DNA of 64,000 bases from NCBI GenBank assembly GCA_000091205.1, contig AP006496.2; one strand, written 5' to 3'. Numbering within the stretch: the first letter of the stretch is position 1; every line of letters starts with the position of its first letter. Below the pieces are notes generated by a model, which did no database searches, was not told the origin of the DNA, and saw only the letters and a list, made by a program, of their open reading frames with translations. Source of the stretch: Cyanidioschyzon merolae (Eukaryota). This document shows positions 13,921-61,089 of the stretch, one piece after another. A program made the position numbers and the translations under genes.

Positions 13921-15850
13921 ATCTAAAGACGCGTCGCCGGCGGTGCGCAGTACTGGTGGCGAACGCGCCTTAGACAAATCGTCTCCAACTGACGTGCCGA
14001 CGCCTCCGCGTCTATTTGGACCGGCCACCCACTACTGCTTTCAACTTCTTCTCATATAGTTCCACTTTGAGCGGTTATCCAACAAAGCCCTCTCGTGTCA
14101 ACTCCGGGCGTCTTCGTTCCACCAGCGCATATCGCCTTAGATAGATAGCGGCGTCAAAGTCTCGGTTCACGAATTCCATCCGTCTCTTGCCATTGATTGT
14201 ATACGCCAGTGCAAGCAATCCACGAACTTTTGCCCTCCTTTCCATTTGCTCCTCCGTCAGCGCTCGGTACTTTTTTATATTCTCAGGGCTCCGCTGACAC
14301 TTTTCCATCTCCACTCTCTGAAGTGCACACCCCGGTTCGTGGTGTGTATACATTGTTCGGAACTCGTCTACAGGCATCGTAACAATACGCCGTGCGCACT
14401 CCTTGCACGCTCTCTTTGTTGGAGATGGCGTCATTCCTTTTTTGGACGCCAAGCGCCCTGCCGCATACGCTCCTACGAGCCTCTGACTCGCGTCCTATTT
14501 GAGGGCGCTCAACTCATTGAAAACGTTCGCGAATGCCCGCTGCCTCCCACAGTATAGATTCATTCGCAAACAATCACACCGGGGCTTGGTATACTCCTCC
14601 CACAGCGCATCCCAATGGGCAACATGAACTTCCATGAATTTCCGAAAAGCTCGAAAGTCCGCTCCCCGGCTCATGACCTCGCTCAAGGCTTCCAGGTGAT
14701 CTTTCATTCCTGAATTCCAAGTCTCGATTTTCTTCCTTTTATCATTATACCGGATTCGCGGTAGTATCTCGCTCTCGAGAATCTCAAGAGACGCATGTCT
14801 TTCTTACGTAAGTTACCGTCAGTACCGTCTTCCGCACGTCTGGGTGCAGCAATGGTGATGATCTTCGTATTGCCAGGGTCCGCGCCAACGACAAAGTCGT
14901 TATCCTGCACTTTCTGCGTGGCAGGATCCGCCTCCTTCTTTTCTTCCTCCTTCGTCATGTCAACGACAAGGTCGTTATCCTCCACCTCCTGCGTCGCAAG
15001 ACCCGCCTCCTTCTCATCTTCCTGCTTCGACGCGCCATCGACAAGGTCGTTATGCTGCACTTTCTGTTCTGTGTGGCAGGATCCTCCTCAATGTTTTCTT
15101 CATCCTTCGTCACGGACGCAGCCGAGGGATGGACTGGCCGATCTTTCTTCAACCGCCGATAGTGTATACACAAGGCTACTCCATCGGTTTCGATCAACCC
15201 AGTGAATACCGTTTGCTTGCTCACTCTCAGACGTTTGGAATCGAAGATATTCTTCCAGTGGGTCTCCAGGTTTTCGCCGGTGAAGTCCTCCCTGCTAACA
15301 TCGAACTCGGGACTGATCTCTTTCATGCGGCGTCAAGGACTCTGGAGTCGATACTCACAAAATGTGACTTGAGGTTGCACATTGGAACGCCGTTGAAGCG
15401 CTTCCCCATTAGGAAATCCTTCCGTCTCTCCCACTCTTCATTTGCCTCTTCACTCAGCTTCATTTCTGCCTTGCGTTCGAGCTCTCGGTCCAGAAACGCG
15501 AGGTACCGCAGGACGAGGCGATAGTATCTTTCCTTATCTTCTTTCAACTCTGATATCTTGTCTGTCGAATCCGCCAACCCCAGAACCGCAGGGCGCTCTT
15601 GAATAGCCGCGCGGATTACAGAATCTTCATTCGTGCTCTCGTTTGACGACCTCTTGTCAAAGAATTCAATCTTATCTTCATGCTTACGATGGTTCGTGAT
15701 GCCGTTGATAATCGCCCATAGCCACTTGCAAGAGATACCCTGGGTACAGTGCAAACACGGCACGTATCATAAAACGCTCCAGGTTCACGATCATATGATT
15801 CTTCAGATTCGTGATGTGCGTACTCGGCCTGTCACAATTTACTCTGGCAT
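13921..15850 (-). mobile_element. Fanzor/TnpB-like element copy F2 (5'-truncated, multiple frameshifts)
   Basis: Minus-strand ORF pieces 14075..14452 (CxxC-like region, RGLLAL, NRDFDAAIY), 14495..14707, 14704..15060 ([17 protein letters not shown] with 3 acidic repeats), 14955..15326 and 15323..15763 are collinear with the F3/F5 protein. The conserved 3' tail is at 13921-14074. The N-terminal ~250 codons are missing, and the copy abuts a partial X/R2 repeat at ~15850. Confidence 0.7.
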
Positions 15851-16240
15851 TAAGAGCGGGCGGCCTGCGTCATGGCGTCGCCCTGGTCCTAACAGACTCC
15901 TAGCACGTCGCTTCACGCTGTTGCAGGCAGCAGATCTGGCTGCCCAGTTGTCAGGCTCCCAGAATGATTACGTATTCCGACTCCGTATCAGGTGAAACCT
16001 TCCTCGATACGACGCCCTCAGTGGTATCGCAAAGCCGTTCTGTGTCCGTTCAGCATTGGCATCAGCGCTACAGGCGCTTTCGCTGGAGCTCAAATCAGAC
16101 ACTCGGGGCACAACAGGACGTACAAAACTACCGGTGTATCCAAAATGATGCATTAGTAATGGGCTTTGATGGTAGATGCGTCATGATGGACGCTTTTTCG
16201 ACTACCAATATCCATCTCGCCGGCTGAGATCCCCGGTCAA
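15850..16240 (+). repeat. X(partial)+R2 short interspersed repeat, copy A
   Basis: 15911-16240 aligns by eye with 42313-42650, 54114-54448 and the reverse complement of 60600-60835. Shared strings: ctcccagaatga, cgacgccctcagtggta, gcaaagccgttctgt, gatggacgcttt..ccaatatccatc. Confidence 0.6.
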
Positions 16241-16409
16241 TGTAAACGAATTTCGCCATCGAAAGAGAATCGATCGCAGCGCCCTGCGGATGCCGCCCCC
16301 CTCCCCTGCGAAATAACATCCAGACAAACATTACGTCTTTTCCCTTCAAAGGGAACACTGGTCCAAGATGCCGACCCTATGCTGATCGCAGAGCAAGCGT
16401 CGAAGGTCT

Positions 16410-20016: not shown

Positions 20017-20244
20017 GTGCTGCACATTTGCGCGGCGCCGAAGGATCACCTGCAAACACGCTCGTTTCGTCAAGGCGTTCAGCATCTAGGTACTGCCGCA
20101 GCGACAACGTCATACGAACAGGTGTTTGGTGTGCTGCACATTTGCGCGGCGCCGAAGGATCACCTGCAAACACGCTCGTTTCGTCAAGGCGTTCAGCATC
20201 TAGGTACTGCCGCAGCGACAACGTCATACGAACAGGTGTTTGGT
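20017..20244. repeat. tandem direct duplication, 2 x 114 bp, preceded by a (CAG/AAG)n microsatellite at ~19975-20010
   Basis: tgctgcacatttgcgcggcgccgaaggatcacctgcaaacacgctcgtttcgtcaaggcgttcagcatctaggtactgccgcagcgacaacgtcatacgaacaggtgtttggt occurs twice back to back. The ORF-track peptide VLHICAAPKDHLQTRSFRQGVQHLGTAAATTSYEQVFG is duplicated accordingly. Confidence 0.85.
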
Positions 20245-23500: not shown

Positions 23501-25873
23501 ACGCATCCCAGCGCACGCAGCGCTGTAGACGTGGTCGTGCGTGCGCAGCCAGCCGGCGAGTGCGTGCAACGATCTGCAGATCGAGCCGCTCAGCGCCAGC
23601 AGGCGATTGCGCACGATACGCGCACGCTCAGCGTTGTTGTATCGACTGGCGATTCGATAGCGCTCATAGAGTTCTGTTGCTTCTGCTTGGGGCGCCATAA
23701 CTATAGTGCTGCAGGCGATAGCGCTACCACGAATGAGACTGTTCAGTGATCGCAAGTTGTACGGGTCGTGGTCACCGATGAGGAAGCTGGCCCGTACAAC
23801 CTGCCGCAAGTCGACTAGCGGTAACTGATCCACGGTTGCCTGCACGCCGGCATCGTGCGTCGCGAGCGCTACCTCCATCAGGGCGTGCCGATCCAGTTCG
23901 CCAAAGTGGTAGACGTGCAGCTGGGGATCCTCAAATAGCGCCGCGCGAACGTGGACCAGGAAACGCCGGAGGATGGATGTGGCTTCTTCTGGTGTGTATG
24001 CCCAGAAGGAGGTCGGCCGCGCGTACTGCCCCGGGCACCATATTCCGAGCAGAAAATACGAACCATCGTATGAAGTCATGTAGGCGATGTACATATCGTA
24101 AGGCGAAGCTGGTGGCAACAGTCGAGCAGGCTCGGCGTTCGCATGCGGCCGTGGCTCATAGGGCAGTCGGCTCGCATCGCCATGGCGATAACGCTGCAGT
24201 AAAAGGCGCGCTTGCAGCATGTACTCCGAAAGTCGCCATGGGGGAATGTCGGCAAGCTGGAGCTGCTCTGCGGCAGGCAGGCTCGCCAGCTGCTCGAGGT
24301 TGCGGAACCCTCTTTCCCATAACTGGCGCATGTCATGCAGGCGCATCTCGGTAACGAGCAACGGGCTCTGATGATAGCGCTCCAGGGCGCATGCTGCGTA
24401 GGCGTTCTGTGTGAGTCGGCGGCGGCACTCACGCATGGCAATGAGCATGTCCAAGCTGGAAGCGCTTTCCGCAATGCGCAGCGAAAGCTCCGCGAGGTTG
24501 GTCTTCAGTAGACGTGCGCCCTCACGACGAACCACGGACAGTAACTCCTCCAGTTTCGCTTCAAAGTAAAACGAGCAATCCGCTGTACGCCAACACTGAA
24601 CCTGCGCAACAACCGCATCCGATTCGCTGTCCAGACACAGATAGAAACGAGGCCAGTAGCCAAGGGTCTGCTCCTGACGTCGCTCCAAAGCCCGAACGAT
24701 CCACAGATACGCCATCGCCTGCATTGTAAACTGCGGCTGTGCTTTGCGAGCTAGTTTGCATTCAGCGACAGTGTAGCGGTACAGACGATATCGATCCCAC
24801 TGCGCCGCAGGTACGGAGGCAATCCAGCGCGCTTCAGGTGGTAGTGCAGTTGAGGGCAAACTGGCTTCTTCCCACGGATTCCACGGCGAGTCCGCAGGAC
24901 AGATTCCGCGCTGGTCGCCGAGCTGGACCCATTCTCGAACCAGCAAGTCACTGCGACCATGCAAGGTTCCGTGTTCAAGGGGCGCTTGCGCGATGATCGC
25001 AACCCCAGCTTCCATTGCTCGCAGCGTTTCCGCCACCGAGTGACAGCAGACAACCTCATGACCATGTTGTCGCAGCGCCTCAAGGAGCGTTTGCTCAAAC
25101 TCACGCCCACCCGCAATAAGGCCTTTCAAAATGGGCGCTCGGGGGCGTAAGCTCGACAAGCACGGCACCGACGCCTGCTGCGTCGAGTCCGACGGCGTGC
25201 CCCGCTGGAGGCGGCTTTGCAGGTACGCAGAGAGGCGAATCGCTCGATCCCAAGCGATGTCGCTGGGGTGCGCATTCGGCTCTTGCAAGACGAGACGTCT
25301 TGCATGGCGACGCTTGTATCCAAAACGAAAATTCATTACTCGATCTACGAGCATCATATGGAACTCGAAAGACGATTCGGTGAATCTGGCAAGCATCGTT
25401 GGTGGTAATGGCAGCAGCTGCTGCCACACGTCCGTGGACTCATCTCGCTGAATAGCTGGCGCGCCTGGCACGTCCGGAGGTGCTTCCGCTGCTGGAAGCG
25501 GCTCCTCTGGCGCCGACGCTTCCAGGCTAGCCACCAGTCGTATGCAGGACCCAGTAGCAGCACCTTTCCTACGTACAGATCGCACGAGCGATAAACTGGA
25601 CTTCTCAGGCGCCCTGTCCAGGCACTGCCTCCAAAGAAGCAGAACCGAATCGTTCCTACGGCGACGACACAGAGTGGCGTGACACCTGCCGCTGCTGTCG
25701 GAGGTGCCAAGTGTGCAGAAGATGAAGCCGCTCTGGCGGCTTGCAGACGAACTGCGGGGCGGAGCTCCGCTTCCGCGCACAGGCGCGACTGCTAGCAGCG
25801 GGATCCATCCGTCGTCTTTGCCTCCGAAAGACTCGATTAGAGACGAGTGAAGGGAGGAGGTCGCCATGGTCAA
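20558..25873 (-). CDS. large superfamily-1 DNA/RNA helicase, Upf1/Sen1/DNA2-like (AAA_11/AAA_12 type), with ~1200-aa uncharacterised N-terminal region
   Basis: 1771-aa uninterrupted ORF. The C-terminal third carries motif I VLVIQGPPGCGKTHTI, motif II YLFVDEAGQ, VLVGDQMQLAAV, motif V GTVDKFQGQERPIVIMSL and motif VI ARRLNVALSRAQCLAVVVGE. The N-terminal region has acidic/Ala/Ser low-complexity inserts encoded by trinucleotide repeats at ~21222-21242 and ~23221-23300. Confidence 0.8.
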   Translation of the reverse strand: MTMATSSLHSSLIESFGGKDDGWIPLLAVAPVRGSGAPPRSSSASRQSGFIFCTLGTSDSSGRCHATLCRRRRNDSVLLLWRQCLDRAPEKSSLSLVRSVRRKGAATGSCIRLVASLEASAPEEPLPAAEAPPDVPGAPAIQRDESTDVWQQLLPLPPTMLARFTESSFEFHMMLVDRVMNFRFGYKRRHARRLVLQEPNAHPSDIAWDRAIRLSAYLQSRLQRGTPSDSTQQASVPCLSSLRPRAPILKGLIAGGREFEQTLLEALRQHGHEVVCCHSVAETLRAMEAGVAIIAQAPLEHGTLHGRSDLLVREWVQLGDQRGICPADSPWNPWEEASLPSTALPPEARWIASVPAAQWDRYRLYRYTVAECKLARKAQPQFTMQAMAYLWIVRALERRQEQTLGYWPRFYLCLDSESDAVVAQVQCWRTADCSFYFEAKLEELLSVVRREGARLLKTNLAELSLRIAESASSLDMLIAMRECRRRLTQNAYAACALERYHQSPLLVTEMRLHDMRQLWERGFRNLEQLASLPAAEQLQLADIPPWRLSEYMLQARLLLQRYRHGDASRLPYEPRPHANAEPARLLPPASPYDMYIAYMTSYDGSYFLLGIWCPGQYARPTSFWAYTPEEATSILRRFLVHVRAALFEDPQLHVYHFGELDRHALMEVALATHDAGVQATVDQLPLVDLRQVVRASFLIGDHDPYNLRSLNSLIRGSAIACSTIVMAPQAEATELYERYRIASRYNNAERARIVRNRLLALSGSICRSLHALAGWLRTHDHVYSAACAGMRAPVLLSSSAASASASAAAAASQDSNDTLSNESVQTGSDVELADHREWRAAAGSSESGARRCVNVNSSDAGAGAAAAAATAGGNGGDSDADDEDNDEDASGSARFRHAVAPSTPYATMIEMLRTERAAGIPERDAMLLSLHVRQRLPVDDPMRDLVDYILRESKIELQHLAWRQRPQVALDRDLYDHPDVIVDAIVVDWDAASPETSLSASDASAGDRRRRTSSQKTSIVSGRDVDAAERLASTTRSQTAPSAALTPPARLEQPMGVAGGDSVDSIAGMHHDDNGSAGSGVHVQGSSISTMQASSDLSGSPGAAPRVQYADQGPDLPTHSSASKATRPQRKKLQASSMNGPPAETPARPDRVNLRVCFPAEQRIYSDSGEWQACLLIGERYLMVPLARLRFTGPDSASIQVDRATAERFLPAGTRLPRIVRRPPFFRRLSSILGLCAAAMHSRQTPLVARYLRRECPFPSLVASDEPFRTAEQVPQVVESLRQITDGRVLVIQGPPGCGKTHTIAECIAELVLGPQPTGRHRFCIGVCASSHAAIDQALGALVQRLRIRGCTHTAALIWRIGQHKQCSLPTGAVHVTTRVPRMAPTSSEADPPFSVLAGTAFALSHEHLRERLDYLFVDEAGQMARAYFVAMLPNVRRAAVLVGDQMQLAAVSANNSLLPSGRPLVGGESSLTYLLGADTSVAGPAWGWFLPTTHRLCPELCRFIGTTFYQGRLRWHARTEQHQVWDHHLGRARSGLGFLAVDVSSSSSSSTATFPGSATVRSRWKREVATVLRLVAMLVQGTRFELRLGPQAATEQSAAPRHVSVDDILIVAPYNEQVNALKTAFTLWAASRTPQTGADAASSNIPRIGTVDKFQGQERPIVIMSLCAPEQDRTAASGGDAEMRTRASHEGIAFILDARRLNVALSRAQCLAVVVGERHLGLGTVDDVQAMKAMNLFLRLRAEAEPWMLEEDVADVQFSSASSTHGPSRL

Positions 25874-25907
25874 ACGCGTGCCCGCTTGAGACGACCCGCA
25901 CCATCAA

Positions 25908-26000
25908 CGCCGCTCGAAAGTCGAACGGCGCCAACGGTGTACAGTAGTGGCGGCAACCGCGCCCTAGACGAGACGTCTCCAACGGGCGTGCAGACGCCTC
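25908..26000 (-). ncRNA. candidate omega-RNA (fRNA) scaffold region of copy F3: the conserved 3' end of the ORF plus the noncoding tail
   Basis: Sense sequence after the stop, ...ctagggcgcggttgccgccactactgtacaccgttggcgccgttcgactttcgagcggcg, is conserved with copies F2, F4 and F5 and then diverges exactly at the element end. No structure or expression evidence is available. Confidence 0.25.
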
Positions 26001-28318
26001 CCAGTTTGTTTGAACCGGAAACCCACTACTGCTTCCAACTTCTTCTCATATTGTCCCACTTTAAGAGGTTGTCCAAGAAAATTCTCTCGTGTCCACTCTG
26101 GAGGTCTTTTCTCCAGGACCGCACATTTCCTTGTATTGATGGCGGCATTCAAATCTCGGTTCACAAACTCCATCCGTTTCTTCCCATTGGTAGTTGTACT
26201 TCCTAGTGCACCTAGTCCTCGCACTTTCACTCTCCTTTCCATTTGCTCTTCCGTCAGCGGTCCGTACTTTTTCATATCCTCAGGGCTCCGTTGGCACGTT
26301 TCCATCTCGACCCTCTGAAGTATACACCCCAGTTCATGGTATGTATAGGACGTTCGGAACTCACCTACAGGTAGTGTAACAAACCGGTGTGCGCACTCCT
26401 TGTACGTTCTTGTCGTTGGAGCTGGTGTACACAATTTTTGGGTCTTCCATCGCCCCGCCCCATACGCTGCTACGAGCCTCTGACTTTCATCCTCCTTCAG
26501 GGCGCTCAACTGATTGAAAAAGTTGGCAAACGCCCGCTGCTTCCCACAATACAAATTCATTCGGAAACGAGCCCACCGGGGCTTGGTATACTCCTCCCAC
26601 GGCGCATCCCAATGGGCAACATGAACTTTCATGAATTTCCGAAAAGCTTCAAAGTCCGCTCCTCGGCTCGCCACCTCGCTCAAAGCTTCTAGGTCATCCT
26701 TCATTCCTGAATTCCGGCTCTCGATTTTCTCCCTCGCATTCATTATACCCGATTCTCGATTGTATCTCGCTATCGAGAACCTCAATAGACGCATGTCTTT
26801 CCGACGTAAACTACCGTCAGTACCATCTTCCGCACACTTCGGTGCTGCGATGGTGATGATATTTGTGTTTCCGGGGTCCGCGCCAACGACAAAGTCGTTA
26901 TCGTGCACTTTCTACGTCACAGGGCCCGCCTCCTTCTTTTCTTCATGCATCACCGCGTCAACGACAAGCACGTTATCCTCCACCTCCTGCGTCTCAGGAC
27001 CCGCCTGCTTCTTTTCTTCATGCATCGCCGCGTTAACGACAAGGTCGTTATGTTGCACTTTCTGTGTGGCAGGATCCGCCTCCTCCTTTTCTTTATCCAT
27101 TGTCACGGGCACACCCGAGGGCGGGACTAAACGATCTGCCTTCAAACGCCGATTGTGTACTCACGTGGCTACTCCATCAGTTTCGATCAACCCAGTAAAT
27201 ACCGTTTGCTTGCTCACTCTCAGACGTTTGAAATCGAAGATATTCTTCCAGTACGTCTCCCGGTTTTCGCCGGAGAGTTCCTCACTGTTGAAATTAAACT
27301 CGGGACTGATCTCCTTCATGATGCCGTAAAGGACGCCTGAATCGATACTCACCAAATGTGACTTGAGGTTGCACATTGGAACACCGTTGAAGCGCTTCCC
27401 CATTAGGAAAGCCTTCCGTCTCCCCCACTCTTCAGTGTTTTCCTCACTCAGCTTTATCTCCGCCTTGCGTCCAAGTTCTAGATCCAGAAACAAGAAATAG
27501 CGAAGAATGAGGCGATAGTGTCTTTCCTTATCTTTTTTCAACTCTGATATCTTTTCTGCTGGACTCGGCAGCCCCAGTACCCCACGGCGCTCTTGAATAG
27601 CCGCACGGATGACAGAAGTTTTACACCTTCTCCTGCGTGACGCCTTCTCTCCGACGAATTCGATCTCATCTTCATGCTTGTGATCGTTCGTGATGCCATT
27701 GATAATCGACCATACTCCTTTGCGAGACAGGCCCGGGTACAGCGCAAACACGGCGCGTATCATGAAACGTTCGAGGTTCATCGTCAAATGGTTCCTCAGG
27801 TTCGTGAGGTAATTCATTGCCCCGTGTTCGTAAATATCCCGGTTACCAATGTATCGAGTGCCCTCGAAGCGGAATTCCGCGAAGTTTTCGTGGAGGGCGT
27901 GTACCCGCTCATTTTCCCTCCGCGTTTCCCTTGCGCCGAGCATCAAGTGACGAACAAAGATATTGTCGAAAAACTCGTCTGGAATCTCGACTGTTTCCAT
28001 GTGCGTCACATCGCGATACATCTCCCTCGCCATACGCATCAGTCCTGAAGACGCCCTGACAATACTCTTGGAGTACGAATCGAGACGTTTTTTGATAGCG
28101 TCTCGCAACTTTTCCCTGTACGGATCCTTGATATGTTCAAGAAGACCGGCTTTCACCACCATATCGTCGTACAGTTGTCTTTCTTTCCGCCTTCGACGTA
28201 GGGCCTCTCCCCTTTGCTTCTTCTTCTCTTCCTTTTCTACTCGACTCGGCACTGTTTTTTGTTTTTTTCTAGCAGCCGGCGACCCTGGGCCTCCAGGATC
28301 GTCGACTTGCTTTTTCAT
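25964..28318 (-). pseudogene. Fanzor1-like TnpB-family RuvC nuclease gene of copy F3 (about 750 codons, 2 frameshifts)
   Basis: N-terminus is basic (KKQKTVPSRVEKEEKKKQRGEALRRRRKERQ). RuvC-I is [17 protein letters not shown] (D at 26878-26876). The Zn-finger-like region is YKECAHRFVTLPVGEFRTSYTYHELGCILQRVEMETCQRSPE. RGLGAL follows. RuvC-III is FVNRDLNAAINTRKC (D at 26155-26153). Confidence 0.7.
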
Positions 28319-28572
28319 AGGTTTCCTTTTTTTTTAGTTTTTTGAAAAAGAACGCTCTTTGAACCCTTATGTAATATACTGCGAACAAACACTTGACTAG
28401 ACTTATTTGAGGGTGAAACACAAATGAACTCAAAAACTGTACTTTGCTACGACTTTAACGCAAATAAAACTTGTACAGTAGAGCAGTGCGCTCCTGATCA
28501 GGATCGCGTTTCCCTTCAATGGCGACATGCGCGTCGTGTCAGGTGACTGCCTGATCTCCCGGGTGCGCTCAC

Positions 28573-29150
28573 CGAGCGCGATTTTTAGAATGGACAAAAC
28601 GTTTCCTTGTGCCAGCGTTCTCCGATTGTGCGCATTTTTCTTTTCTTTCTCTCTTTTTGTGTTTTTTTCAGTGCGCGGTGAGGTATCCATCAACCCCCTA
28701 CCTCCATGTTACATTACCGATACTTCATCGCGGATATTCTGGTCGTTTCATACGTCCTATGATGTGTGCCTAGTACCTGCCGTGCCGTACCCGCCTTTGG
28801 ACCTTAACAGCTGGGGCAGATAGTTCATAGAGACAGAACGGCTTTTCCATACCACAGAGGGCGCCGGCTCGAGGCGTGGTTTACCCGACGTAGAATTGGG
28901 TGTCGCCGTCAGTTTGTGCTCAGACAGTCTGCGGATGCAGGTTTGTCTTCGCTGCACGAAACGCTGGAGACACTTGGCTGTTAGGATATATCGTGGGAGC
29001 CGCCTCTCTCTTTCGTGATCATGCATGGAATGCGTTGTTGTCGGTTGGCAATGTGGCTTCGTGCTTGACACCCACCCACCACTGTGGGTAGGCGCAGAAA
29101 GCACTGGGCCCGTGTGCGCATCCGATTCGCTAGACCTTCCGCCTAGAAGG
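28573..29150 (+). repeat. R3 interspersed repeat (~590 bp), copy 1
   Basis: Near-identical by eye to 48990-49575. The first ~150 bp (gccagcgttctccgattgtgcgc..polypyrimidine..cagtgcgcggtgaggtatccatcaaccccctacc) are also at 60420-60600. Confidence 0.7.
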
Positions 29151-30386
29151 TAGCATGTGAGTTTCTTCGCCACTAATGAGCGCTGAGGCTCGGTTAGCGG
29201 ACCATAAGTTGCCAGTGCTACACTCAGAGTGAGTGTCCGGTCTTCGACTATCACGATGATGCCCAGCTGCTGGTGTCCTCCAAGGAGCTCGCTGCGCTCC
29301 TGCTTCCAGCGCGGGCACTGTAAGCCTAAATATGTCAGCGTCTCGGGGATCTCGTCTCGACAGCAGGGACAGTGTGATTCCCAGTGCGATTCCAGTGTTC
29401 CTATACGGCTTAGAGACGGTGCTGGTAGCCAGAAGCCACCAACGCGGATTTTGGCGAGCCACTGGGTACCTCGAGCAAGTCCCGGGAATTCCAGCGCCTC
29501 CTACCAGTGCCTGCATGTGTATGCTAGGTTGTAGTTCCGGTATAGAGTCAAGCCGGCGTTAAGGGCGCGACTGGTACCGTGTCTACGTTCCCATATTGTT
29601 GTTTGGACCGTTCGCTTCAGGCGGTGGGAGCCTTCTACATTTCTGGGGAACGATTCGAGCGCATTTTCGCCTAAGAGGCGCTTCAACCAAATATGCGTCC
29701 ATTTCATCCTTCTTGCGACGCACCTACCGGTACCGAGTACGTCTCGAGCCTCGTACGCGCTACCGCGGCATATGCCGACCTGCCTCTCTCTCTTCAGTGC
29801 AGAGCGGAGGACTCGACGCTGGACCTCTTAACGACACCGAAAGGCGCTGCTGTTGCTTCTGGGGAAGCACCCGCGACTATCCGTCCAACGGTCCGTACCA
29901 GAGACGTTTGGCACTAGCCCCTAGCGCACTGACAGCTTCGTGCTGCTTGCCGGGTTCGTTATTCGGGCTGCCGAGCGTTTCGGGACGGTAGTCACAGCGA
30001 GCGCCTCCGCTGAGGCAGTTTCACGCTCTTGGGGAAGGGGCGCGCACTTTGCAGGTCGCCAACGTGTCCAGCGTCAAGCCCAACGACTGAACTGCCGTCG
30101 ACTGAGTCGCACACGTACACATGCTCACTGGGACATCAGCGCCTTTCGCCGCTTTGGACTGAGGCTTTGGCGGCGTTTACTACCCGAGTCGGAGAAAAGT
30201 GCGGCGGGTCCGTGAATACTGGGCGGTTTATTGCAGCACTTGACCAGGGAGAAGGGTTGCAGTGAACAGCAGCACGCTACGACTACTGCGCAAAGCTGTT
30301 CGCGCGCGTCTGGTAGCGCTTCCAAGTTGTGTCGAGCGCAGCATAGGCACGAAGCAACGACCCCAAAACGGACGCCCTGAACCTGC

Positions 30387-42029: not shown

Positions 42030-42650
42030 GAACAGAAACTAACCATTCACTATCAACTCGATAACAATTTCTTCCCTGCTCTACCGTACACGTTTACAAG
42101 GGGAAAAGATTTCCGTATTTTCGAAAGCTTTCCTTCTAAGCGGAAGGTCCCGCGAGCCGGACGAGTCTGATGGGCTCGTGCTCCGTGCACCTCTGAAGTG
42201 CCCGGTGCTATAGTGAGGCCTGAACAGCTCCTCCGCAACGCACTATATTCTGGGACCAGGAGCAGGTAGGATGCATCCAGGTGTCGCCATAATCACAGAG
42301 GTCTCCGGGAATATCGCTTCGCGCTGTCGCAGGAAGTAGGCCTGTCTGCGCAGTTTGCAGACCCCCAGAATGCTGACAAGTCTGAATTCCGTATCGGATG
42401 AACCAAGCATCAAACCGACGCCCTGAGTGGTATGGCAAAGCCGTTCTGTCTCCGTGCAGCATCTGCTTCAACGGCATACGCGCGATTGCGGATGCAGCAA
42501 GACAGGTACCCGGCGCACGATCGAGCGTACATAACGACCGGTACATCCGAGAGGAACTATGGATCAGGGAACTTGCAAGTAGGTTGCAGCATGAAGGATG
42601 CTTTCTCGGTAACCAATATCCATCCCACAATCTGCGATCCATGGTCCAAG
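42030..42650 (+). repeat. X + R2 composite short repeat, copy B
   Basis: 42030-42312 (X: aacagaaactaaccatt...cccgcgagccggacgagt...) matches 53815-54113. 42313-42650 (R2) matches copies A, C and D. Confidence 0.65.
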
Positions 42651-44915
42651 GGATCATTCTACCGAATAACAACAAAATCGTGCGCAGGTCGCCGACGGCG
42701 CCCGCGCCTCTACCAGCCACAGACGTATGCGCTTTGCGTAGGCTCTTTGCTGGAGGCCTGTCGCTCAACACTGCACGTGCTGCTTTTCCCTCTGTGTGTG
42801 ATGCGGAAACGACGCAGCAGTTTAGGTTTCGTTGAGAATGTCTGCCTTGTGTCGGGCGTCGGGAGCGTCACGCGCTGGAGCGCTCGCGCTTCATCCCAGC
42901 GTGCCACCTCGGAAGCGCTGGTGTTTCGTCAGCCACGTGTTAGGGTTACTCGGCAACCGTCGAGGCGCTTGCGGCACCCTTTGGATGGCACTGGTGCGGG
43001 ACTGCGGGGCGCACAGCACATGCACTGTGTTTCAAGGCTCACGGAGCGGTCCCTGGCTGTGATTCATCCAGGGAGCGCTCTGCAGACAGTGCGCCAAGTG
43101 CTCACGACGCTCCTGGTCGCGTGCAGCTCGGACGCTGCTGTTGTCACCGCTGCAATAGTTTGTCTCTCCGTGTACTTGTCGTTGCACGTTAACCAAGCAC
43201 GCCGGGCCGAAATCGCGCAGAACAGGCCAACCGACGGCCACGCTCAACGGCATGCACCTGGACTCTCAGATAAAGCGACCGCTAGACTAGTAGCAATAGA
43301 GATAGGACGTTCGAGCCGAACACTCTATGTTGACAAGGGCCCGCTGGATACAACAGCCTCAGAGCGATTGCTGCTGGCTATATCGGACGCAAGCTCCTTT
43401 CGCGCACGCGGAAGAAATGTATGGCGCGCTCTCGTGGGGTCGCTCTTGCCGGAGGGATTCGGCGACAAGACACGCTTCCCGCCCGTTGTTTCAGATGACT
43501 ACCTGCCGTATACCGTCCTTCACTTTATGCAGAACCTCGTCCACGCTGCAGCGTCAGTCATTGCGACGCAGTCGATGCTGATTGCCATCGGCGTCGCCAA
43601 GCAGGCCACCATCGGCGTCTCCGCTGCAGTGCAGTGGGTTCTCAAGGACGGGCTTGGGCGCATCGCTGCGATCATCTTCGGTTCGCTTCTGGGGAACCGC
43701 TACGACGCCGATCCGAAGCGTTGGCGAATGCGCGGCGATATGTTGTACACGCTGGGTGTGGGCACGGAGATCGCCACGCGCCTGGTACCGCAGTACTTTC
43801 TGCTGGTAGGCACCATGGCAAATGCCATCAAGTCCGTATCCTATATGATGCGATTGCCAACAGCTGCCGCCATTCGGAGGCATTTCTCCTTACGGGAAAA
43901 CTTTGGTGATCTATCTGCAAAGGCGAATTCGCAGGAGGTTCTCAGCATGTTGCTGGGTACTTTTGTAGGCATCGGCCTATCCTACATGATCGACAATAGT
44001 CTGAAGGCTCTCTTTGCATTCTACATCATTTATGTACAGATGTTCATTCTTTTTAACTACTGGTCACTTCGCGTTTTGCGGATGCGGACGCTGAACTTGC
44101 AGCGAACGCTCATTGTCATGAGGCGCTACTGGAACTCGGGTGGCGTTGAAACCTGCTCAGTGGCGATGGCGAACCAGGCGGAGAACTTTCTACTGCCATC
44201 GCGTTTGGGGCCCGCCCGCAGAGTGCGTTTCGGGTGTCGGCTGGGGGAAGCATTTCGAACGGTAGGCGAATTCGAAGAAGCGATTGCCAGGCAGCGATTA
44301 TGGCGAGGACAGTACCTCCAACAAACAGATGTCAGCAAGCGAAACGGCAATGCAGATGCTGACTTCACCAGTGTACCGGATGATGTACTCGATGAGCGCT
44401 ATTTGCTCGGCGTAGATGCAAAGCGTGGCCGAGTCTTCGTTGTCCTGCACCGGGACGCCAAAGTTGCAGATGAGCTGCAAGCGCTCATGCATGCGACCTA
44501 CTTGGTGCGTGCTGACTGGGGCCCGCCTCCCGACATGTCCATAGACAGGGTACGTGACGGCTACTTGCTGGCATGTGCAGAGACACCAGTCCTGGTTCAG
44601 CGCATGCGAGCAGTCGGTTGGAATGTGGACGAATTTGTGCACGCAGGCGGAGAGCGGGCAAGAGCCATCTGGGGAACGGAAATCGAACAGCTCGGCACAG
44701 CCGCTGCCGACGTCGAGCACCCGACGTCTGCGCTGACGCGCCTGCTTCATCCGGCAGTCACGAAGCAACCCTCATCGGTAGGTTCGTACGAGCTTCTCAC
44801 GACCGTTCAGGAATCAGCAGAGGCGACGGCAGCGGAGGAGTCGCTTGCCATGTCGCCATGGGGCCCTACGTTCCCCGAAGTGTCCTTCGGGTCCGAACTG
44901 GATATCGTATCTTGA
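42432..44915 (+). CDS. RUS family protein (DUF647; root-UVB-sensitive-like); the true start is probably well downstream of 42432
   Basis: The conserved block LPEGFGDKTRFPPVVSDDYLPYTVLHFMQNLVHAAASVIATQSMLIAIGVAKQATIGVSAAVQWVLKDGLGRIAAIIFGSLLGNRYDADPKRWRMRGDMLYTLGVGTEIATRLVPQYFLLVGTMANAIKSVSYMM matches DUF647 from memory. The first ~70 codons of the ORF lie inside R2 repeat copy B. Confidence 0.6.
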   Translation: MAKPFCLRAASASTAYARLRMQQDRYPAHDRAYITTGTSERNYGSGNLQVGCSMKDAFSVTNIHPTICDPWSKGSFYRITTKSCAGRRRRPRLYQPQTYALCVGSLLEACRSTLHVLLFPLCVMRKRRSSLGFVENVCLVSGVGSVTRWSARASSQRATSEALVFRQPRVRVTRQPSRRLRHPLDGTGAGLRGAQHMHCVSRLTERSLAVIHPGSALQTVRQVLTTLLVACSSDAAVVTAAIVCLSVYLSLHVNQARRAEIAQNRPTDGHAQRHAPGLSDKATARLVAIEIGRSSRTLYVDKGPLDTTASERLLLAISDASSFRARGRNVWRALVGSLLPEGFGDKTRFPPVVSDDYLPYTVLHFMQNLVHAAASVIATQSMLIAIGVAKQATIGVSAAVQWVLKDGLGRIAAIIFGSLLGNRYDADPKRWRMRGDMLYTLGVGTEIATRLVPQYFLLVGTMANAIKSVSYMMRLPTAAAIRRHFSLRENFGDLSAKANSQEVLSMLLGTFVGIGLSYMIDNSLKALFAFYIIYVQMFILFNYWSLRVLRMRTLNLQRTLIVMRRYWNSGGVETCSVAMANQAENFLLPSRLGPARRVRFGCRLGEAFRTVGEFEEAIARQRLWRGQYLQQTDVSKRNGNADADFTSVPDDVLDERYLLGVDAKRGRVFVVLHRDAKVADELQALMHATYLVRADWGPPPDMSIDRVRDGYLLACAETPVLVQRMRAVGWNVDEFVHAGGERARAIWGTEIEQLGTAAADVEHPTSALTRLLHPAVTKQPSSVGSYELLTTVQESAEATAAEESLAMSPWGPTFPEVSFGSELDIVS

Positions 44916-48285: not shown

Positions 48286-48711
48286 CTAGAGTCGGAACGG
48301 CGCCATCGCGAGACCCTTTCCGCGCAACGCCTGTCGATAGACGACTTCGAAGAGGTCCACCAGCTGCTGCACGCTCGGCACCGGACGGGTCAGACGCGCC
48401 GTGTCTCCAGTACCACAGTCCACCTTGATGAGGCGCTTTCGATAATAGAACTGGAGCGACAGGGGTCGCCACGCCTCAACGCCGAAGCGCCGCGCAGCCT
48501 GCGGAACCTGCCGCAAGTCCACACCGTACACCACTGCGAACCTCCGCACGCGCGCTGCTGATCTTGCGAGGATTTCGTCCATGAAGACACAATCTACAGC
48601 TGCTGGATCGCTACTAAAGCGCAGGGCAACCAGACGCTCGGTTTCCTCAGCCAGTGCTTGTTGAATCGCCGCCATGGAGCCCAGTACCGGCACCAACGGT
48701 GCACTGTCCAT
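48286..48711 (-). CDS. Dim1/Dim2 (TXNL4A/TXNL4B) thioredoxin-like U5 snRNP family protein
   Basis: EETERLVALRFSSDPAAVDCVFMDEILARSAARVRRFAVVYGVDLRQVPQAARRFGVEAW..LSLQFYYRKRLIKVDCGTGDTARLT...QQLVDLFEVVYRQALRGKGLAMAPF is collinear with Dim1/DLP. Confidence 0.8.
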   Translation of the reverse strand: MDSAPLVPVLGSMAAIQQALAEETERLVALRFSSDPAAVDCVFMDEILARSAARVRRFAVVYGVDLRQVPQAARRFGVEAWRPLSLQFYYRKRLIKVDCGTGDTARLTRPVPSVQQLVDLFEVVYRQALRGKGLAMAPFRL

Positions 48712-48989: not shown

Positions 48990-49575
48990 TAAATATATCA
49001 TTAGGTATCTATATGCCACCACAGCAGCACGTTCGGATTTTTTCGCTGACAAAACGTTTACTTCGGCCAGCGTTCTCCGATTAAGCGCATTTGTTTCTTA
49101 CTTTTTTTGTGGTTTTTTTCAGTGGGCGGTAAGGTGTCCATCAAACCCCCGACCTCCAAGTTACATTGCCGATACCTCTTCTCGGATATTCCGGTCGTTT
49201 CATACGTCCCATCGGGTGTGCCTAGTGCCTGCCGTTCCGTATCCGCCTTTGGACCTTAAATGCTAGAGCAGATAGTTCATAGAGCTAGAACAGCTTTTCT
49301 ATACCCGAGAGGACGTCGGCTCGAGGCGTGCTTCACCCAACGTAGAATCGGGTCTCGTCGTCAGTTTGTGCTCGGACAGTCTGCGGATGCAGGCTTGCCT
49401 TCGCTGCACGACACGCTGGAGAAACTTGGCTGTTAGGATGAATGCTGGGAGCCGCCTCTCTCCTTCGTGATCATGCATGGAATGCGTTGTTGTCGGTTGG
49501 CAATGCGGGTTTGTGCTTGACACCCACCACAGTGGGTAGGCGCAGAAAGCGCACTGGCCCCGTATGCGTATCCGA
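48990..49575 (+). repeat. R3 interspersed repeat, copy 2 (no adjacent Fanzor gene)
   Basis: Aligns along its full length with 28573-29150. It lies ~280 bp upstream of the start of the minus-strand Dim1-like gene. Confidence 0.7.
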
Positions 49576-49905
49576 TTCGCTGGACCTTGCGCCCAGAAGG
49601 TACCCTTGATGCCGATGCGCGTCGCGCACATTAGCATAAGCGCATAACCTGGACAATCCGACACCATCCACCATGCAAGCTGCGGAAGGCAGTTTGGTGG
49701 CGCCATTCGTGCCAGAGGCGCTGCTGCGCTTTCGGTTGCGCGCGCTGGCCATCGAGGTAGCGCGAATGCTCGCCAAAGTGCGCGCACAGCTCGCGCAACG
49801 GAATCCTGTGTGGGGTGTAGCGAATTCTCCCCCCCAGGTACCGCTACGCTGCTGCACTGAGGTCGACTCCAAAAGGGTGCCTGTTGGAGGCGTGAACCGC
49901 CATCA

Positions 49906-51285: not shown

Positions 51286-51400
51286 CGCCTTAAAAGTCGA
51301 ACGTCGCCGGCGGCCGTGTACAGTAGTGGCGAGAAACCCGCCCTAGATAAAACGTCTTCAGCTGACGTGCAGACGCCTCCCAGCTTTTTTGGACAGGCTA
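51286..51400 (-). ncRNA. candidate omega-RNA scaffold region of copy F4
   Basis: Sense tail after the stop, agacgttttatctagggcgggtttctcgccactactgtacacggccgccggcgacgttcgacttttaaggcg, is conserved with F2, F3 and F5 up to the last base and then diverges. Confidence 0.25.
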
Positions 51401-53790
51401 CCTACTACTGCCTCCAACTTTTTCTCATACAGCTCCACTTTGAATGATTGCGCAACAAAGTTCTCTCGTGTCAACTCTGGAGGTCTTCTTTCCACCACGG
51501 CACATCTCCTTATATTGATAGCGGCGTTAAAGTCACGATTCACAAACTCCATACGTTTCTTGCCATCTTTGTTTGTACACAGTAATGCGAGTAGTCCACG
51601 AGCTTTCGCCCTGCTTTCCATTTGCTCCTCCGTCAACGCTCCGTACTTTTTTACATCCTCAGGGCTTCACTGGTACTTTTCCATCTCCACTCTCTGAAGC
51701 GTACAACCCACTTCATGGTGTGTATACGACGTCCGGAACTCATCTACAGGTATCGTAACGAGATGCCTTTCACACACCTTGTGCGTTCTTGTAGCTGGAG
51801 CTAGCCTAGTCCCTTTTTCCCACGCCTACCGCCCTGCCCAATACGCTTCTACTAGCCTCTGACTGTCGCTCTCCTTCAAGGCGCTCAACTCATTGAAAAA
51901 ACTCGTGAACGCACGCTGCCTCCCACCGTGTAGATTCATACACAACCGAGCCCACCGGGGCTTTGTATACTCCTCCTACAGCGCCTCGCAATGAGCAACA
52001 CGAACTTCCATAAACTCCCGGAAAGCGTGAAAGTCCGCTCCCCGGCCCGTCACCTGGCTGATCGCTTCCAGGTGCTCTTTCAATCCTGCGTTCCACGCCC
52101 CACTTTTCTTCCTTTATTCATTACACTGAATTCTCGGTAATATCTCGTTCTTGAAAGCTTTAAAACACGCATGTGTTTTTGACGTAGGTTGCCGTCGATG
52201 CCATCATCCCCGCAATTGCGTGTTGTGATGGTCATGATATTCGTGTTCCCAGGGCCCGCGCCAACGACAAAGTGGTTCTCATGCACCTCCTGCTTCGTGG
52301 GGCTAGCCTCTTTGTTTTCTTCACGCTTTGCCAGCGACGGCAACGAAGACAGAACTGGACGATCCGCCTTCAAGCGCCGATAATGTACACGCATGGCTAT
52401 CGCATCACTTTCGATCATCCCAGTAAAGTCCTTTTTCTTGCTCGTTCTGAGACGTTTGGAATCGAAGATATTCTTCTTCCAGTACGTCTCCTGGTTTTCA
52501 CCGGTGAACTCCTTGTTGCTTACATCGAACACTGGACAGATCTCCGTAATGATGCCGTAAGGGATTTCGGAGTCGATACTCACAAAATGTGACTTGATGT
52601 TGCACAACGGAACGACGTTGAAGCGCTTCTCCAGAAGCGCAGCTTTCCGTTTCTCCGTCACTGCATTTGCTTCAACACCCTGCTCCATATCGGTCTTGCA
52701 TTTCAGTTGTCGGTTCAGGAATATGGTATAGCGCAAGATGAGGCGATCGTATCTTTCCGAATCTTTTTTCAACTCTGATATCTTTTCTGCTGGACTCGCC
52801 AGCCCCAAGACCACACGATGCTCTTTAATAGCTGCACGGATTACAGAATCCTCATTTGCTCTCCTGCGTGATGTCTTCTCGTGAACAAATTCGATCTACT
52901 GTTCATTCTTACTATCGTTTGTGATGCCATCGATGATGGTCCATATCCCTTTGCGAGAGGGGCCCGGGTAGCGCGTACAGACGGCGCGTATCATGAAACG
53001 TTCCAGGTTCATGGTCAAATAGTTCTTCAGGTTCGTGAGGTGCTTCATAACCCCGACGGTGTAAATACGCGAGTCACCCCTGTCTCGAGTACCGTTGAAG
53101 CGGAATTCGGCGTAATTTTCGTGGAGGGCATGCACCCGCTCATTTCTCCTCGACGTTTCCCCTGTACCAAGCATCAGGTGACGAATAAAGGTTTTGCCGA
53201 AAAATTCTTCCAGAACCTCGACTGTTTTGATGCCCGTTGCGTCGTCGCGCATCTCCTTCACCAAATGCATTATACCTGCAGAAGCCATCATAACACTCAT
53301 GGAGTCTGACTCGATACGGTTTCTGATGGCCTCTCGCAGCTTTCGCCGGGACGGATCCTTGATATGTGCGAGAAGACAGGTTTTCACCACCATCTGGTCG
53401 TACTGTCGTGTTTCGTTCAGCTTCTGACCTCGGGCCTCCCTCTTTTGCTCCATCGTCTTCTCATGTTCCTTTTAGCTCCGCCATGTTTTTCCTTAGTCTC
53501 CGGCAGTCGACGACACCAGATGTCCAGGATCCTCCAGTTTCTTTTCCACAACTTTTTCATTATTTTTGAAGAAGAAGAAGGCTCTTTCAACGCTTCTGAT
53601 ATGAATCGCTAAAATTGATTTGAATACACTAACTTGAGGTTTGAAACACAATTGCATTAAACAACTTTAATTTGTTACGACTTTAACGCAAATACAACTT
53701 GTACGGTAGAACAATAAGAAAACGGATTTTCACAATTTCGCGTTTCCTTTCAACGGCGACACGTGCGTCTTGTCTCGTACGACCTGATCT
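51286..53790 (-). mobile_element. Fanzor/TnpB-like element copy F4 (full length, frameshifted)
   Basis: Minus-strand ORF pieces 51358..51636 (RGLLAL..FVNRDFNAAINIRRCAVVE), 52080..52814 ([14 protein letters not shown] with a single acidic repeat unit) and 52896..53453 (N-terminal domain, starting MEQKREARGQK...). The conserved 3' tail is 51286-51357. The 5' UTR (gactttaacgcaaatacaacttgtac, cgcgtttcctttcaacggcgacacgtgcg...ctgatctccccggcgcgc) ends at ~53790, where repeat X begins. Confidence 0.75.
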
Positions 53791-53814
53791 CCCCGGCGCG
53801 CTAACCGACCGCAG

Positions 53815-54448
53815 CATACAGAGCAAAGAACAGAGACTAACCATTAACTAGCAACGATATACCAATTTATCTTCCCTGCACGATAAACGATAAAAAGGAA
53901 ACACGATTCCCGTTTTGTCGAAAGTTGAATTTCTCGACGGAAAAACCCGCGAGCCAGACGAGTACCCCAGGCACGTGCTTCGTGCTCGCCTCCCAGTGGC
54001 GGGTGCTGCACTGAAATCTGAGCAATTCGTCTGCAGCACTGTTTATTCTGGTACTAGCGGCAGTTAAACTGCATCTGGGCGTCGATCCGGTCGCGGTGGA
54101 GTCCTAGTATAGAGCTTCACGCTATCGCAGGCAGTGTGTCTGTCTGCGGAGCTTGCTGGCTCCCAGAATGATCCTATACTCCAACTCTGTGTCAGGTGGA
54201 GCATTCCTCGATCCGACGCCCTCAGTAGTACGGCAACGCTGCTCTGTATCTGTGATGCATCGGCATCAGCGGATTAGACGCTAAGGCGGGTGCATCAACG
54301 CATGCACCCGGCGAATGACAGGAAGCACGAGACGAGTAGTACATCTGAAAGGAAGTATACGTAATGGAATCTGGAGTTAGAATGCAGCATGATGGACGCT
54401 TTCGCTGAATCCGATACCCATTTATAGCACAATCTGGGATCCATTGTC
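53815..54448 (+). repeat. X + R2 composite repeat, copy C, lying between the head-to-head Fanzor copies F4 and F5
   Basis: 53815-54113 matches 42030-42312. 54114-54448 matches R2 copies A, B and D. Confidence 0.65.
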
Positions 54449-54802
54449 AATATAAGTGTTTTTCCATCGGAAAAATGAAGCGTGTAGCTCTAACGTACAA
54501 ATTGTAACGATGTTCAAGTCGTAGAAAAATACATTGTTTGTCCTCAATCGTGTTTCAACCTTCACTCTAGTGTATTCAAGTGCTTTTTCGTGCGTAATAG
54601 CTGTCCCATCCAAAGTGGTTTCGGTTTTTATATTGAAAAAGGAAAGTTACGGAAGTGGAAGTGTAGGATCCTGGGCGTCAATGTCGCCGGCAGCCCGAAA
54701 AAACGAAGAACAGTGCCAAGTGCAAAGGAACAGGATAAGAAGAAGAAGTAAAAGTGGAAGGCCCTACGTCAAAGGCTACACAAAAGACGACGGTACGACG
54801 AG

Positions 54803-56907: not shown

Positions 56908-56944
56908 TTGGTTTCCAGGGGCGCGCGCTACAGCAACGCCTCTG

Positions 56945-60419: not shown

Positions 60420-60835
60420 CAACGAAAGATGCTGCAAATTTTTTCCCATTGCCAAGACGCGTACCAAGGCCAGCGTCCTCCGATTGTGCGCTTTTGCTTT
60501 TTTCTTTTTCTTTTCATTTTTTTTCAGCGCGCGGTTAAGCATCCATCAAACCCCCTACTTCCAAACTCCGTAACCCATACTACTCCTCGGATACACTGAT
60601 CGCTTCATAGGCTGTATCGTTCGCTGAGCGCATGCCGCAAGCGTCCCTTGTGGAGCTTGTACCGTTGGCACGAATGCATCTCAATGACAGAACGGCTTTG
60701 CCGTACTAATGAGGACGCCGCCTCGGTGCTTGGTTTATCCAACATGGAATCGGGATTCACTATCATTACGAGAGCCTGCAAGCTGCGCAGACAGACCTAC
60801 TGCCTGCAACAGCGCGAAGAGATTTACCAGGATAA
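60420..60835. repeat. R3 5' fragment (plus orientation, 60420-60600) abutting R2 copy D (minus orientation, 60600-60835) in the SppA promoter region
   Basis: 60455-60600 matches the first ~150 bp of R3. The reverse complement of 60600-60835 matches R2 (cttcgcgctgttgcaggcag...ctcgtaatgatag...ggcaaagccgttctgt). Confidence 0.6.
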
Positions 60836-61089
60836 TCCTGCGAACACGGGCGACTCCTAGACGCAGCGCACCAGCTCCTAGTCCCGAACTGAACTGCGTT
60901 GCGGGCGAGCTGCTCAAGTCTCGCCATTGCACCCACCACTTGGTGGAGCATGAAGTTTCAGCGCGGCGGAGTCGTCTGGCTCGCGGGACGCCCCGACTAA
61001 AAGGTGAACTTTCGACCATGCGAAACAATTTTGCCAGCTTCAACACGTACCGTCGAGGCAAATATTCGTATATCGTTGCTAGGTAGCGT

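Follow-up and report, generated by a model that had tools for sequence, protein, structure and literature searches.

The R3 repeat of Cyanidioschyzon merolae is most probably the 3' end of a LINE retrotransposon and of its short non-autonomous derivatives

LINE/SINE partners with a common 3' tail are exemplified by the eel pair UnaL2/UnaSINE1 and by the CR1-type SINEs. The Dictyostelium TRE elements and yeast Ty1/Ty3 insert near pol III genes, and TnpB/Fanzor systems place the guide RNA at the gene's 3' end. For the red alga Cyanidioschyzon merolae 10D, the parts of the genome report that treat repeats give 26 non-LTR class I elements, three of them reported to be intact LINE copies, and a 3.2-kb repeat at 253 copies, now known to carry Fanzor; elements related to reverse transcriptase are only counted in those parts, and tail-only copies of the kind analysed here are not described in them (Nozaki et al., 2007, PMC1955436). 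The commonest C. merolae repeat, CMe-1A (about 150-250 copies, about 5% of the genome), opens with 635 bp that constitute TE-N2_CMe, an element of about 70 copies. The class of TE-N2 and CMe-1A and the way in which CMe-1A spreads are listed as unknown, and their orientation relative to a LINE is not given (Bao and Jurka, 2013, Mob DNA 4:12, PMC3627910; Repbase).

The repeat called R3 was studied in a window of 64,000 nt, the whole stretch of DNA that was analysed (contig AP006496.2 of assembly GCA_000091205.1). The gene content of this window is of eukaryotic type and nearly without introns, with single-ORF genes for a Cse1 exportin, an SF1 helicase, a RUS-domain protein and SppA, the last of which is identical at 714 of 714 residues to XP_005537213.1 of C. 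merolae 10D. We conclude, with a probability of roughly 90%, that R3 represents the 3' terminal part of a non-LTR (LINE) retrotransposon, together with short non-autonomous derivatives, in the C. merolae nuclear genome. It is a stretch that the copies of a LINE family have in common rather than an independent unit, and amounts to ordinary retrotransposon debris from known families (5'-truncated LINE tails and TE-N2_CMe) in a known genome.

The initial annotation recognised three copies of R3, each in plus orientation. Sensitive self-comparison finds six, three per strand, so that a uniform plus orientation is wrong; what holds in all six is the orientation relative to the neighbouring gene. 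The sense strand of the element, used from here on, is the reverse of the orientation first adopted. Copy 1 (28576..29717, minus strand) is a 5'-truncated LINE of 1.14 kb that matches LINE consensus positions 3155-4294 at 92.6%. What had been delimited as R3 (28573-29150) is the 3' half of this copy; homology to other copies continues beyond 29150 to 29717, and the 1.1-kb unit recurs at more than 20 other loci at 85-90% identity. Its tail, ...TTGTCCATTCTAAAAAT, stops at about 28580, against the left end of a Fanzor unit, F3. Copy 2, a LINE-tail element of 0.57 kb previously placed at 48990-49575, spans 49038..49602 (minus) and matches consensus positions 3726-4287 at 91.2%; its 5' start is common to several independent insertions elsewhere that are flanked by target-site duplications. 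The close likeness first seen between these two copies is upheld, with 86.5% identity across 563 nt (28593-29152 versus 49048-49602, E=0). A third relative in the same orientation does lie beside SppA; rather than a 5' fragment of about 180 nt at 60420-60600, it is a diverged copy of about 60427..61140 (minus), recovered at full length by nhmmer at about 70-75% identity, in which a TE-N2-type head is combined with an A-type tail bearing a purine tract (CMe-1A 65-617 against 60537-61086, 74.7%).

The three copies that had been missed lie on the plus strand and are all of the TE-N2_CMe type. Copy 4 (42030..42687; CMe-1A 22-630 against 42646-42033, 81.1%) has its tail just upstream of the RUS-domain gene and its head against a Fanzor 3' fragment at 41769-42009. 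Copy 5 (53828..54489; CMe-1A 1-630 against 54469-53831, 79.4%) sits between two Fanzor units, its head 15 nt from the left end of F4 and its tail against F5, whose left end is short by about 95 nt. Copy 6 (15802..16279; CMe-1A 1-423 against 16261-15835, 77%; nhmmer profile positions 83-542) is headless, the head having been removed by a deletion that extends into Fanzor F2.

The family was followed beyond the window in metagenome contigs. A scan with a degenerate R3 motif, which matched all eight copies then known, gave 120 loci. Some of them, together with their flanks, show 97% identity or more to the window, so that close relatives of this organism are present in those samples. A profile search gave 165 matches that reduced to 78 distinct loci. 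When the copies are aligned, one end is constant and the other variable. The constant terminus reads, in sense, ...AAACGTTTTGTCAATG and is followed by an A-run of 4-10 bases whose length varies; on the opposite strand the true end of R3 reads ...AAACGTTTTGTCAATGA(n)T and lies 25-30 nt outside the "gccagcg..." at which the repeat had been thought to start. Most A-type copies run well beyond R3 as first drawn, and in L076, L030, L045 and L102 they pass into an element of at least 4 kb. The full element, of about 4.3 kb, encodes a reverse transcriptase and then a C-terminal zinc knuckle, and its last 570 nt or so, consisting of the end of ORF2 and the 3' UTR, is what had been named R3.

The coding part of the element is that of a non-LTR retrotransposon. 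The Pfam domain RVT_1 is matched at E=5e-14 in a single copy and at E=1.3e-28 in a 13-copy consensus, where the match covers profile positions 6-203 of 205; the enzyme carries the motif FADD, and the knuckle has the form CPCC...H...C. At E<=0.001 the PDB yields 10 matches, every one of them to a non-LTR enzyme (R2, LINE-1 ORF2p or a related reverse transcriptase). The closest named relatives of the reverse transcriptase consensus are proteins annotated as "retroelement, alive [Cyanidioschyzon merolae strain 10D]", at 77-81% identity. The R3-bearing elements thus agree with the annotated non-LTR retrotransposons of strain 10D in their protein and in their nearest solved structures, R2 and LINE-1 ORF2p, and copies 1 and 2 match the 3' end at 91-93%. 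Within copy 1, a remnant of the ORF2 C-terminus is preserved at 29057..29656 (minus), where the C-terminal piece of the consensus aligns by tblastn at 87.5% over 200 aa and where the zinc-knuckle motif ...ETLTYLGLQCPRWKQER is found. The 5' third of the LINE consensus rests on 2-3 degenerate copies only, and in its N-terminal region, built from these, no endonuclease domain was matched in Pfam; PF03372 is present in distant relatives of the reverse transcriptase.

The variable end is truncated at many points, some of which recur. The copies begin at eight or more different points of the consensus, among them positions 2182, 3023, 3155, 3204, 3216, 3517, about 3726 and about 4000, with roughly 10 copies starting at about 3726 and 5 at about 4000. 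The recurring starts mark discrete sub-elements and not random truncations, and each of the two classes is represented by several independent insertions, some of them flanked by duplications. Target-site duplications of 8-16 bp were found at related metagenome copies (ATCGATCACGCG, CATCACGCG, TCCAGTCTACG, TCGAAAGAGTATC and ACTCGCCG..ATCC), and an exact word of at least 8 nt is shared across the junctions of 7 of 20 distinct copies, compared with 2.9% of mismatched control pairs. Duplications at the copy boundaries are thus a property of the family, but no clear duplication of their own was found at the two A-type copies of the window. Inspection of the TE-N2-type copies, older and 15-25% diverged, brought up no convincing duplications. 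No terminal inverted repeats or long terminal repeats were seen, and no empty pre-insertion sites for the window copies were present among 122 loci.

Taken together, the constant 3' end, the variable 5' end, the reverse transcriptase and the target-site duplications argue strongly for R3 as a LINE 3' end. The earlier suspicion that R3 belongs to a mobile element is borne out by the same features, the varying A-run included. By analogy with LINE biology, the copies would arise by target-primed reverse transcription, in which reverse transcription of the RNA begins at its 3' end on a nicked target, a process that would typically yield 5'-truncated copies unable to move again alone. For the short elements, mobilisation in trans by the enzyme of the LINE, via the common tail, is probable, as the homology of the tails suggests.

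The relation of the copies to TE-N2_CMe was established with the CMe-1A consensus taken from the supplement of PMC3627910. The first 630 nt of CMe-1A align with copies 3-6 at 75-81% identity over 427-641 nt, which identifies these four copies as TE-N2_CMe; they come from the same organism and show the divergence reported for the family (about 80% identity). Copies 1 and 2 are not members. They match TE-N2 only in blocks of 193-213 nt and 81 nt, at 74-79%, and so 28576-29717 and 49038-49602 differ from the published family in being similar to it in patches only; they are related to TE-N2 but, at 91-93% identity to the LINE consensus, belong to the LINE proper. The same 630 nt of CMe-1A align with the tail of the LINE consensus in reverse orientation, in two blocks of 77-82% identity. 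TE-N2_CMe, of about 650 nt, has a head of 100 nt of its own, which shows likeness to no known RNA family, and a LINE-like tail about 65-80% identical to that of the LINE. TE-N2 thus proves to be a LINE-type 3' tail read in reverse complement.

This arrangement resembles that of the known LINE/SINE pairs in that the 3' region of a LINE in the same genome recurs in a short element (TE-N2 of about 650 nt, or one of the two classes of about 570 and about 290 nt), which shares with that LINE the terminal motif and the A-run and outnumbers it. It differs from them in two respects. First, the short elements have no tRNA, 7SL or 5S-type pol III head according to ARAGORN and Rfam. Second, no conserved stem-loop was detected in the tail of R3.

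The position of the copies relative to genes bears on whether R3 might act on its neighbours. All six window copies point, in element sense, at a gene start lying about 115-325 nt away, and two of the six "genes" are Fanzor pseudogenes in inherited composites with R3. Copy 1 is about 262 nt from the ATG of Fanzor F3 and copy 5 about 200-330 nt from that of Fanzor F5, measured from the tail. Copy 2 lies about 324 nt, instead of about 280 bp, from the start of the gene for Dim1, a U5 snRNP thioredoxin-like protein (48286..48711, minus; Pfam DIM1, E=2.5e-31), whose ATG is at 48711 and which follows copy 2 on its 3' side. Copy 3 is followed on its 3' side by the host gene for SppA, a peptidase of Pfam family S49 (58142..60286, minus). 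The distance here had been given as about 20 bp from a start at 60403, which is the GTG start of an ORF and an artefact of bacterial ORF calling; the annotated ATG is at 60286, about 150 nt from the tail. For copy 4 the distance is about 115-130 nt to the start of the gene for the RUS (Root UVB sensitive) domain protein, with that start inferred as the first ATG outside the repeat, at about 42801; a bacterial-style ORF call for this gene, at 42432, begins within copy 4. Copy 6 ends about 140-150 nt from the ATG at 16416 of a TPT-family transporter ORF (16416-17351; Pfam TPT match), which lies beyond its tail.

A census at 78 distinct metagenome and window loci counted the host ORFs, of 200 aa or longer, that lie no more than 1 kb from the element end. 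Before merging, the tail side faced 21 ORF starts and 9 ORF ends; with duplicates merged and two window cases added, it faced 22 starts and 8 ends, at a median distance of 262 nt. This 22:8 ratio differs from a 50% null (binomial p=0.016) but not from a 60% null (p=0.19), and the head side, with 9 starts and 6 ends, is not significantly different from the tail (Fisher p=0.50). The insertion bias towards gene starts that was proposed earlier is therefore visible as a trend but is not established. There is a weak, suggestive tendency of R3 tails to sit just upstream of genes and to point towards them.

These positions could also be read as showing that R3 is a promoter-carrying module, which donates, or has been recruited to serve as, the promoter or 5' leader for Dim1, SppA, the RUS-domain gene, the transporter and Fanzor. 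The aim of all six window copies at a gene start 115-325 nt away and the 22 starts against 8 ends on the tail side of the census are consistent with such a role, as is an A/G-rich tract near the tail in one subfamily, since A/G-rich tracts can exclude nucleosomes. That tract is the sense-strand counterpart of the polypyrimidine tract followed by cag that had been described as a general part of R3. It is present, but in one subfamily only: A-type copies carry a purine tract near the element end, and it is missing from TE-N2-type copies sitting at the same position, from the three window copies that run minus in the orientation first adopted, and from the CMe-1A consensus. (A trypanosomatid-style trans-splice acceptor, as the combination of polypyrimidine tract and CAG might suggest, was discarded, the host being a red alga and the tract a one-subfamily feature on the antisense strand of the element.) Moreover, R3 is the end of the element's 3' UTR, and the truncated copies are without the LINE 5' region, where an internal promoter would be expected. 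About a quarter of the copies are turned to the 3' end of a gene, the bias is lost when the null is set at 60% and does not differ from that on the head side, and the host genes are of the conserved housekeeping kind and have upstream DNA of their own, 115-325 nt long. We thus consider a promoter function improbable, and the view of R3 as a promoter-carrying element that was offered initially has found no support.

With R3 taken as a LINE 3' end, the nearness to gene starts is best read as the outcome of copies inserting, and persisting, in the short intergenic stretches on the promoter side of genes in a very compact genome; an orientation that reads towards the gene may be preferred, and a promoter role of R3 would not be required. 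The situation would then be comparable to that of TRE and Ty1/Ty3 in the compactness of the genome, the insertions in upstream intergenic DNA and a possible orientation rule. It differs from theirs in that the neighbours of R3 are protein-coding pol II genes, in that ARAGORN found no tRNA genes in the window, and in the weakness of the bias (22:8).

The second association of R3 is with the F family, a TnpB-like Fanzor1 gene with the motifs VGADPG, VDEFRTS and NRDLNAAIN. The window contains eight pseudogenised copies or fragments of it, and the family corresponds both to the 3.2-kb repeat of Nozaki et al. (2007, PMC1955436) and to the CMe-1A element of Bao and Jurka (2013, PMC3627910). The F3 unit (25870..28579, minus) is a pseudogene with RuvC-like motifs and in-frame TGA and TAG stops, about 80% identical by eye to the published CMe-1 protein; the coordinate 25870 is an approximation, and in BLAST the homology with other F copies ceases at 25905. 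Its left end, ATCGCGCTCGGTGAGCGCACC..., begins directly after the tail of copy 1, so that the junction of the two that had been described is exact, at 28579/28580. The F4 unit (51293..53812, minus) forms with copy 5 a complete composite of the CMe-1A type, TE-N2 followed by Fanzor; their junction is conserved in L002, and the pair reproduces the layout of the CMe-1A consensus. The head of copy 3 is joined to an internally deleted Fanzor copy, F6, at a junction homologous to L002. A seventh Fanzor copy, F1, may carry a remnant of a TE-N2 head.

R3 could on this basis be taken for a functional part of the Fanzor transposon, either its left end or a gene for its guide (omega) RNA, with the solo copies as Fanzor remnants. 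Of the eight Fanzor copies or fragments in the window, six adjoin an R3 copy, with F1 possibly a seventh; the published CMe-1A consensus opens with TE-N2 as its initial 635 bp; and the TE-N2/Fanzor junction, in which the TE-N2 head stands 15 nt away from the left end of Fanzor, is inherited between loci as CMe-1A. Yet R3 is continuous with a reverse transcriptase-encoding LINE in which there is no Fanzor, it is also found without Fanzor in solo copies that have their own A-runs and target-site duplications, and where the two do touch they do so through either end of R3 and in both orientations. A guide RNA would be expected at the 3' end of the gene, where the Fanzor unit keeps 100-130 conserved nt of its own past the stop codon, and R3 shows no conserved RNA structure. 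A function of R3 within the Fanzor transposon is, in our judgement, very unlikely.

The left end of Fanzor (A, then TCGCGCTCGGTGAGCGCACC...) follows directly on the A-run of LINE copies with different 5' truncations (position 28580 of the window, L074, L055, L038, L083 and L030), and it also lies directly against LINE 5' ends (L076, L009 and L001); it carries a small hairpin with compensatory changes between copies. All 11 TE-N2+Fanzor composites seen reach the Fanzor 3' end, which speaks against retro-copying of a simple kind with 5' truncation at random. A target duplication that encloses a whole composite has one 8-bp candidate, TGCGATCG (F2 with copy 6), in about nine composites, which is insufficient. 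Two further models were set aside. A duplication spanning the LINE copy 1 and F3, as a 3'-transduction model would have it, was dropped, the shared GGTGCG being internal to Fanzor; and a Helitron-like reading of Fanzor, prompted by a TC start after A and by a hairpin and CTAG seen by eye near the 3' end, was abandoned, homology extending about 90 nt beyond the CTAG.

The coding and RNA-folding capacity of R3 was examined as well. The antisense ORF of about 160 aa in copy 1 (28757-29254) overlaps the end of the LINE ORF2, and its remainder is 3' UTR. The three copies first regarded as plus-oriented have ORFs of 162-172 aa on one and the same strand; the stops of these ORFs differ in place, and other copies lack such ORFs. 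R3 shows no 3-base periodicity and no shared frame, indels between subfamilies break the frame, and the antisense ORFs have no Pfam match, in agreement with the initial view that the ORF is not conserved as a reading frame. Over the whole window no Rfam family was matched and ARAGORN found no tRNA-like sequence, RNAalifold over the full repeat in eight copies gave a covariation term of only -0.45 kcal/mol, and over 56 non-redundant tails it gave no consensus pairs. R3 is therefore non-coding and lacks a detectable conserved RNA fold. An IS605/IS607-type tnpA upstream of the TnpB-like gene was discarded for want of a Pfam match, periodicity or a conserved frame, and a known or structured RNA, including a Fanzor guide RNA, was discarded with Rfam empty, covariation almost nil and no pairs in the 56 tails. 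That R3 encodes a small protein of about 160 aa or is a family of structured non-coding RNA genes can be dismissed almost entirely: the 162-172-aa ORFs on the same strand in three copies, and conservation over about 550 nt in copies just 65-70% identical, are countered by ORF ends that vary, by ORFs absent from other copies, by the lack of periodicity, Pfam and Rfam matches and by the near absence of covariation, with only the first part of the copy 1 ORF, the end of the LINE ORF2, being truly derived from coding sequence.

With R3 understood as a LINE 3' end, as stated no new mechanism is needed, the repeats of this genome having been catalogued already. What is modestly new is the recognition of TE-N2, the 5' part of CMe-1A, as a LINE-type tail in reverse, along with a possible sense-oriented bias upstream of genes. 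It is conceivable, although we put this forward only tentatively and think it rather unlikely, that CMe-1A depends on the LINE system, by one of two routes. First, the whole 3.3-kb composite, an antisense Fanzor with TE-N2 as its LINE-type tail, may be copied through RNA by the LINE enzyme, which would explain why TE-N2 shares just one end with CMe-1A. Second, Fanzor units may insert specifically at the ends of the LINE family, as is suggested by a left end (A, then TCGCGC...) with a compensated hairpin that lies exactly against LINE A-run tails, LINE 5' ends and TE-N2 heads. As a weaker addition, the LINE family may prefer sense-oriented insertion 100-400 nt upstream of protein-coding genes.

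In summary, TE-N2 as a reversed LINE tail provides a testable idea for how a Fanzor element without a transposase became the most abundant repeat of C. merolae. The sense-oriented bias upstream of genes, if true, would mean that a LINE targets the promoter side of pol II genes in a very compact genome.

The left end of the Fanzor1 (TnpB-like) unit, A/TCGCGCTCGGTGAGCGCACC..GGGAGATCAGG with the slash marking the junction, directly abuts LINE A-run tails, LINE 5' ends and the heads of TE-N2, the short non-autonomous relative of the LINE whose 3' tail is R3. Junctions with A-run tails lie at 28555-28582 in the window and, among the metagenome-contig loci, at L074 11571, L055 12187, L038 1054, L083 904 and L030 4281, and the LINE copies whose tails meet the Fanzor left end in this way differ in their 5' truncation; junctions with LINE 5' ends lie at L076 6798, L009 1792 and L001 9673. 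Within the left end is a hairpin whose stem shows compensatory changes among copies (GCGCTC/GAGCGC, GCGCA/TGCGC, GCGCG/CGCGC and GTGTA/TACAC).

Eight copies or fragments of the Fanzor1 unit were found in the 64 kb and occupy roughly 25-30% of it; the repeat has been reported at about 5% genome-wide. All eight are pseudogenes: F1 (2646-5147), F2 (13910-15817), F3 (25870-28579), F4 (51293-53812), F5 (54487-56910), F6 (61143-61984), a fragment at 41769-42009 and a further copy or fragment at 38549-38969. F3 carries TGA and TAG stops in frame, and F5 contains frameshifts. The left end of F1 is slightly truncated. F1 may be a copy of CMe-1A, the published composite of TE-N2 followed by Fanzor, that has lost most of its TE-N2 part, because a TE-N2 head-like stretch (...gtgtcttgttcttg) is located upstream of it at 5148-5230.

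Alignment of 25870-25964 with the 3' ends of the other copies revealed that approximately 100-130 nt past the Fanzor stop codon are conserved, including small hairpins (GACGTTTCGTC followed by TAG, and GGCGCGGTTGCCGCC). This region is a candidate guide RNA (omega RNA) or right-end region. The Fanzor ORF itself contains internal 75-nt tandem repeats at 26878-27105, with equivalents in F1 and F2, which encode a repeated acidic/lysine-rich segment and vary in number among copies.

As for the host genes, the reading frames of SppA and RUS run into the repeat, to 60403 and 42432, respectively, when ORFs are called in the bacterial manner (starts at GTG or TTG, first ATG); the annotated start of SppA is the ATG at 60286, and that of RUS is probably the ATG near 42801. 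The SF1 helicase ORF (1771 aa, 20558-25873, minus strand) has a perfect tandem duplication of 2 x 114 nt, 100% identical (coordinates as given, 20017-20244).

Elsewhere, R3 elements are paired tail to tail with a constant spacer of 52-53 nt (L049 7245-8364, L107 from 12323, L052 from 2312, and L042); the spacer of the L087 pair is 65 nt. Internally deleted LINE derivatives, which fuse a 5' segment of the LINE, ~850 nt long, directly to its last ~570 nt (L009 1588-2432, L055 12750-13384 and L110 14200-14798), are another non-autonomous form of the R3-bearing LINE family.
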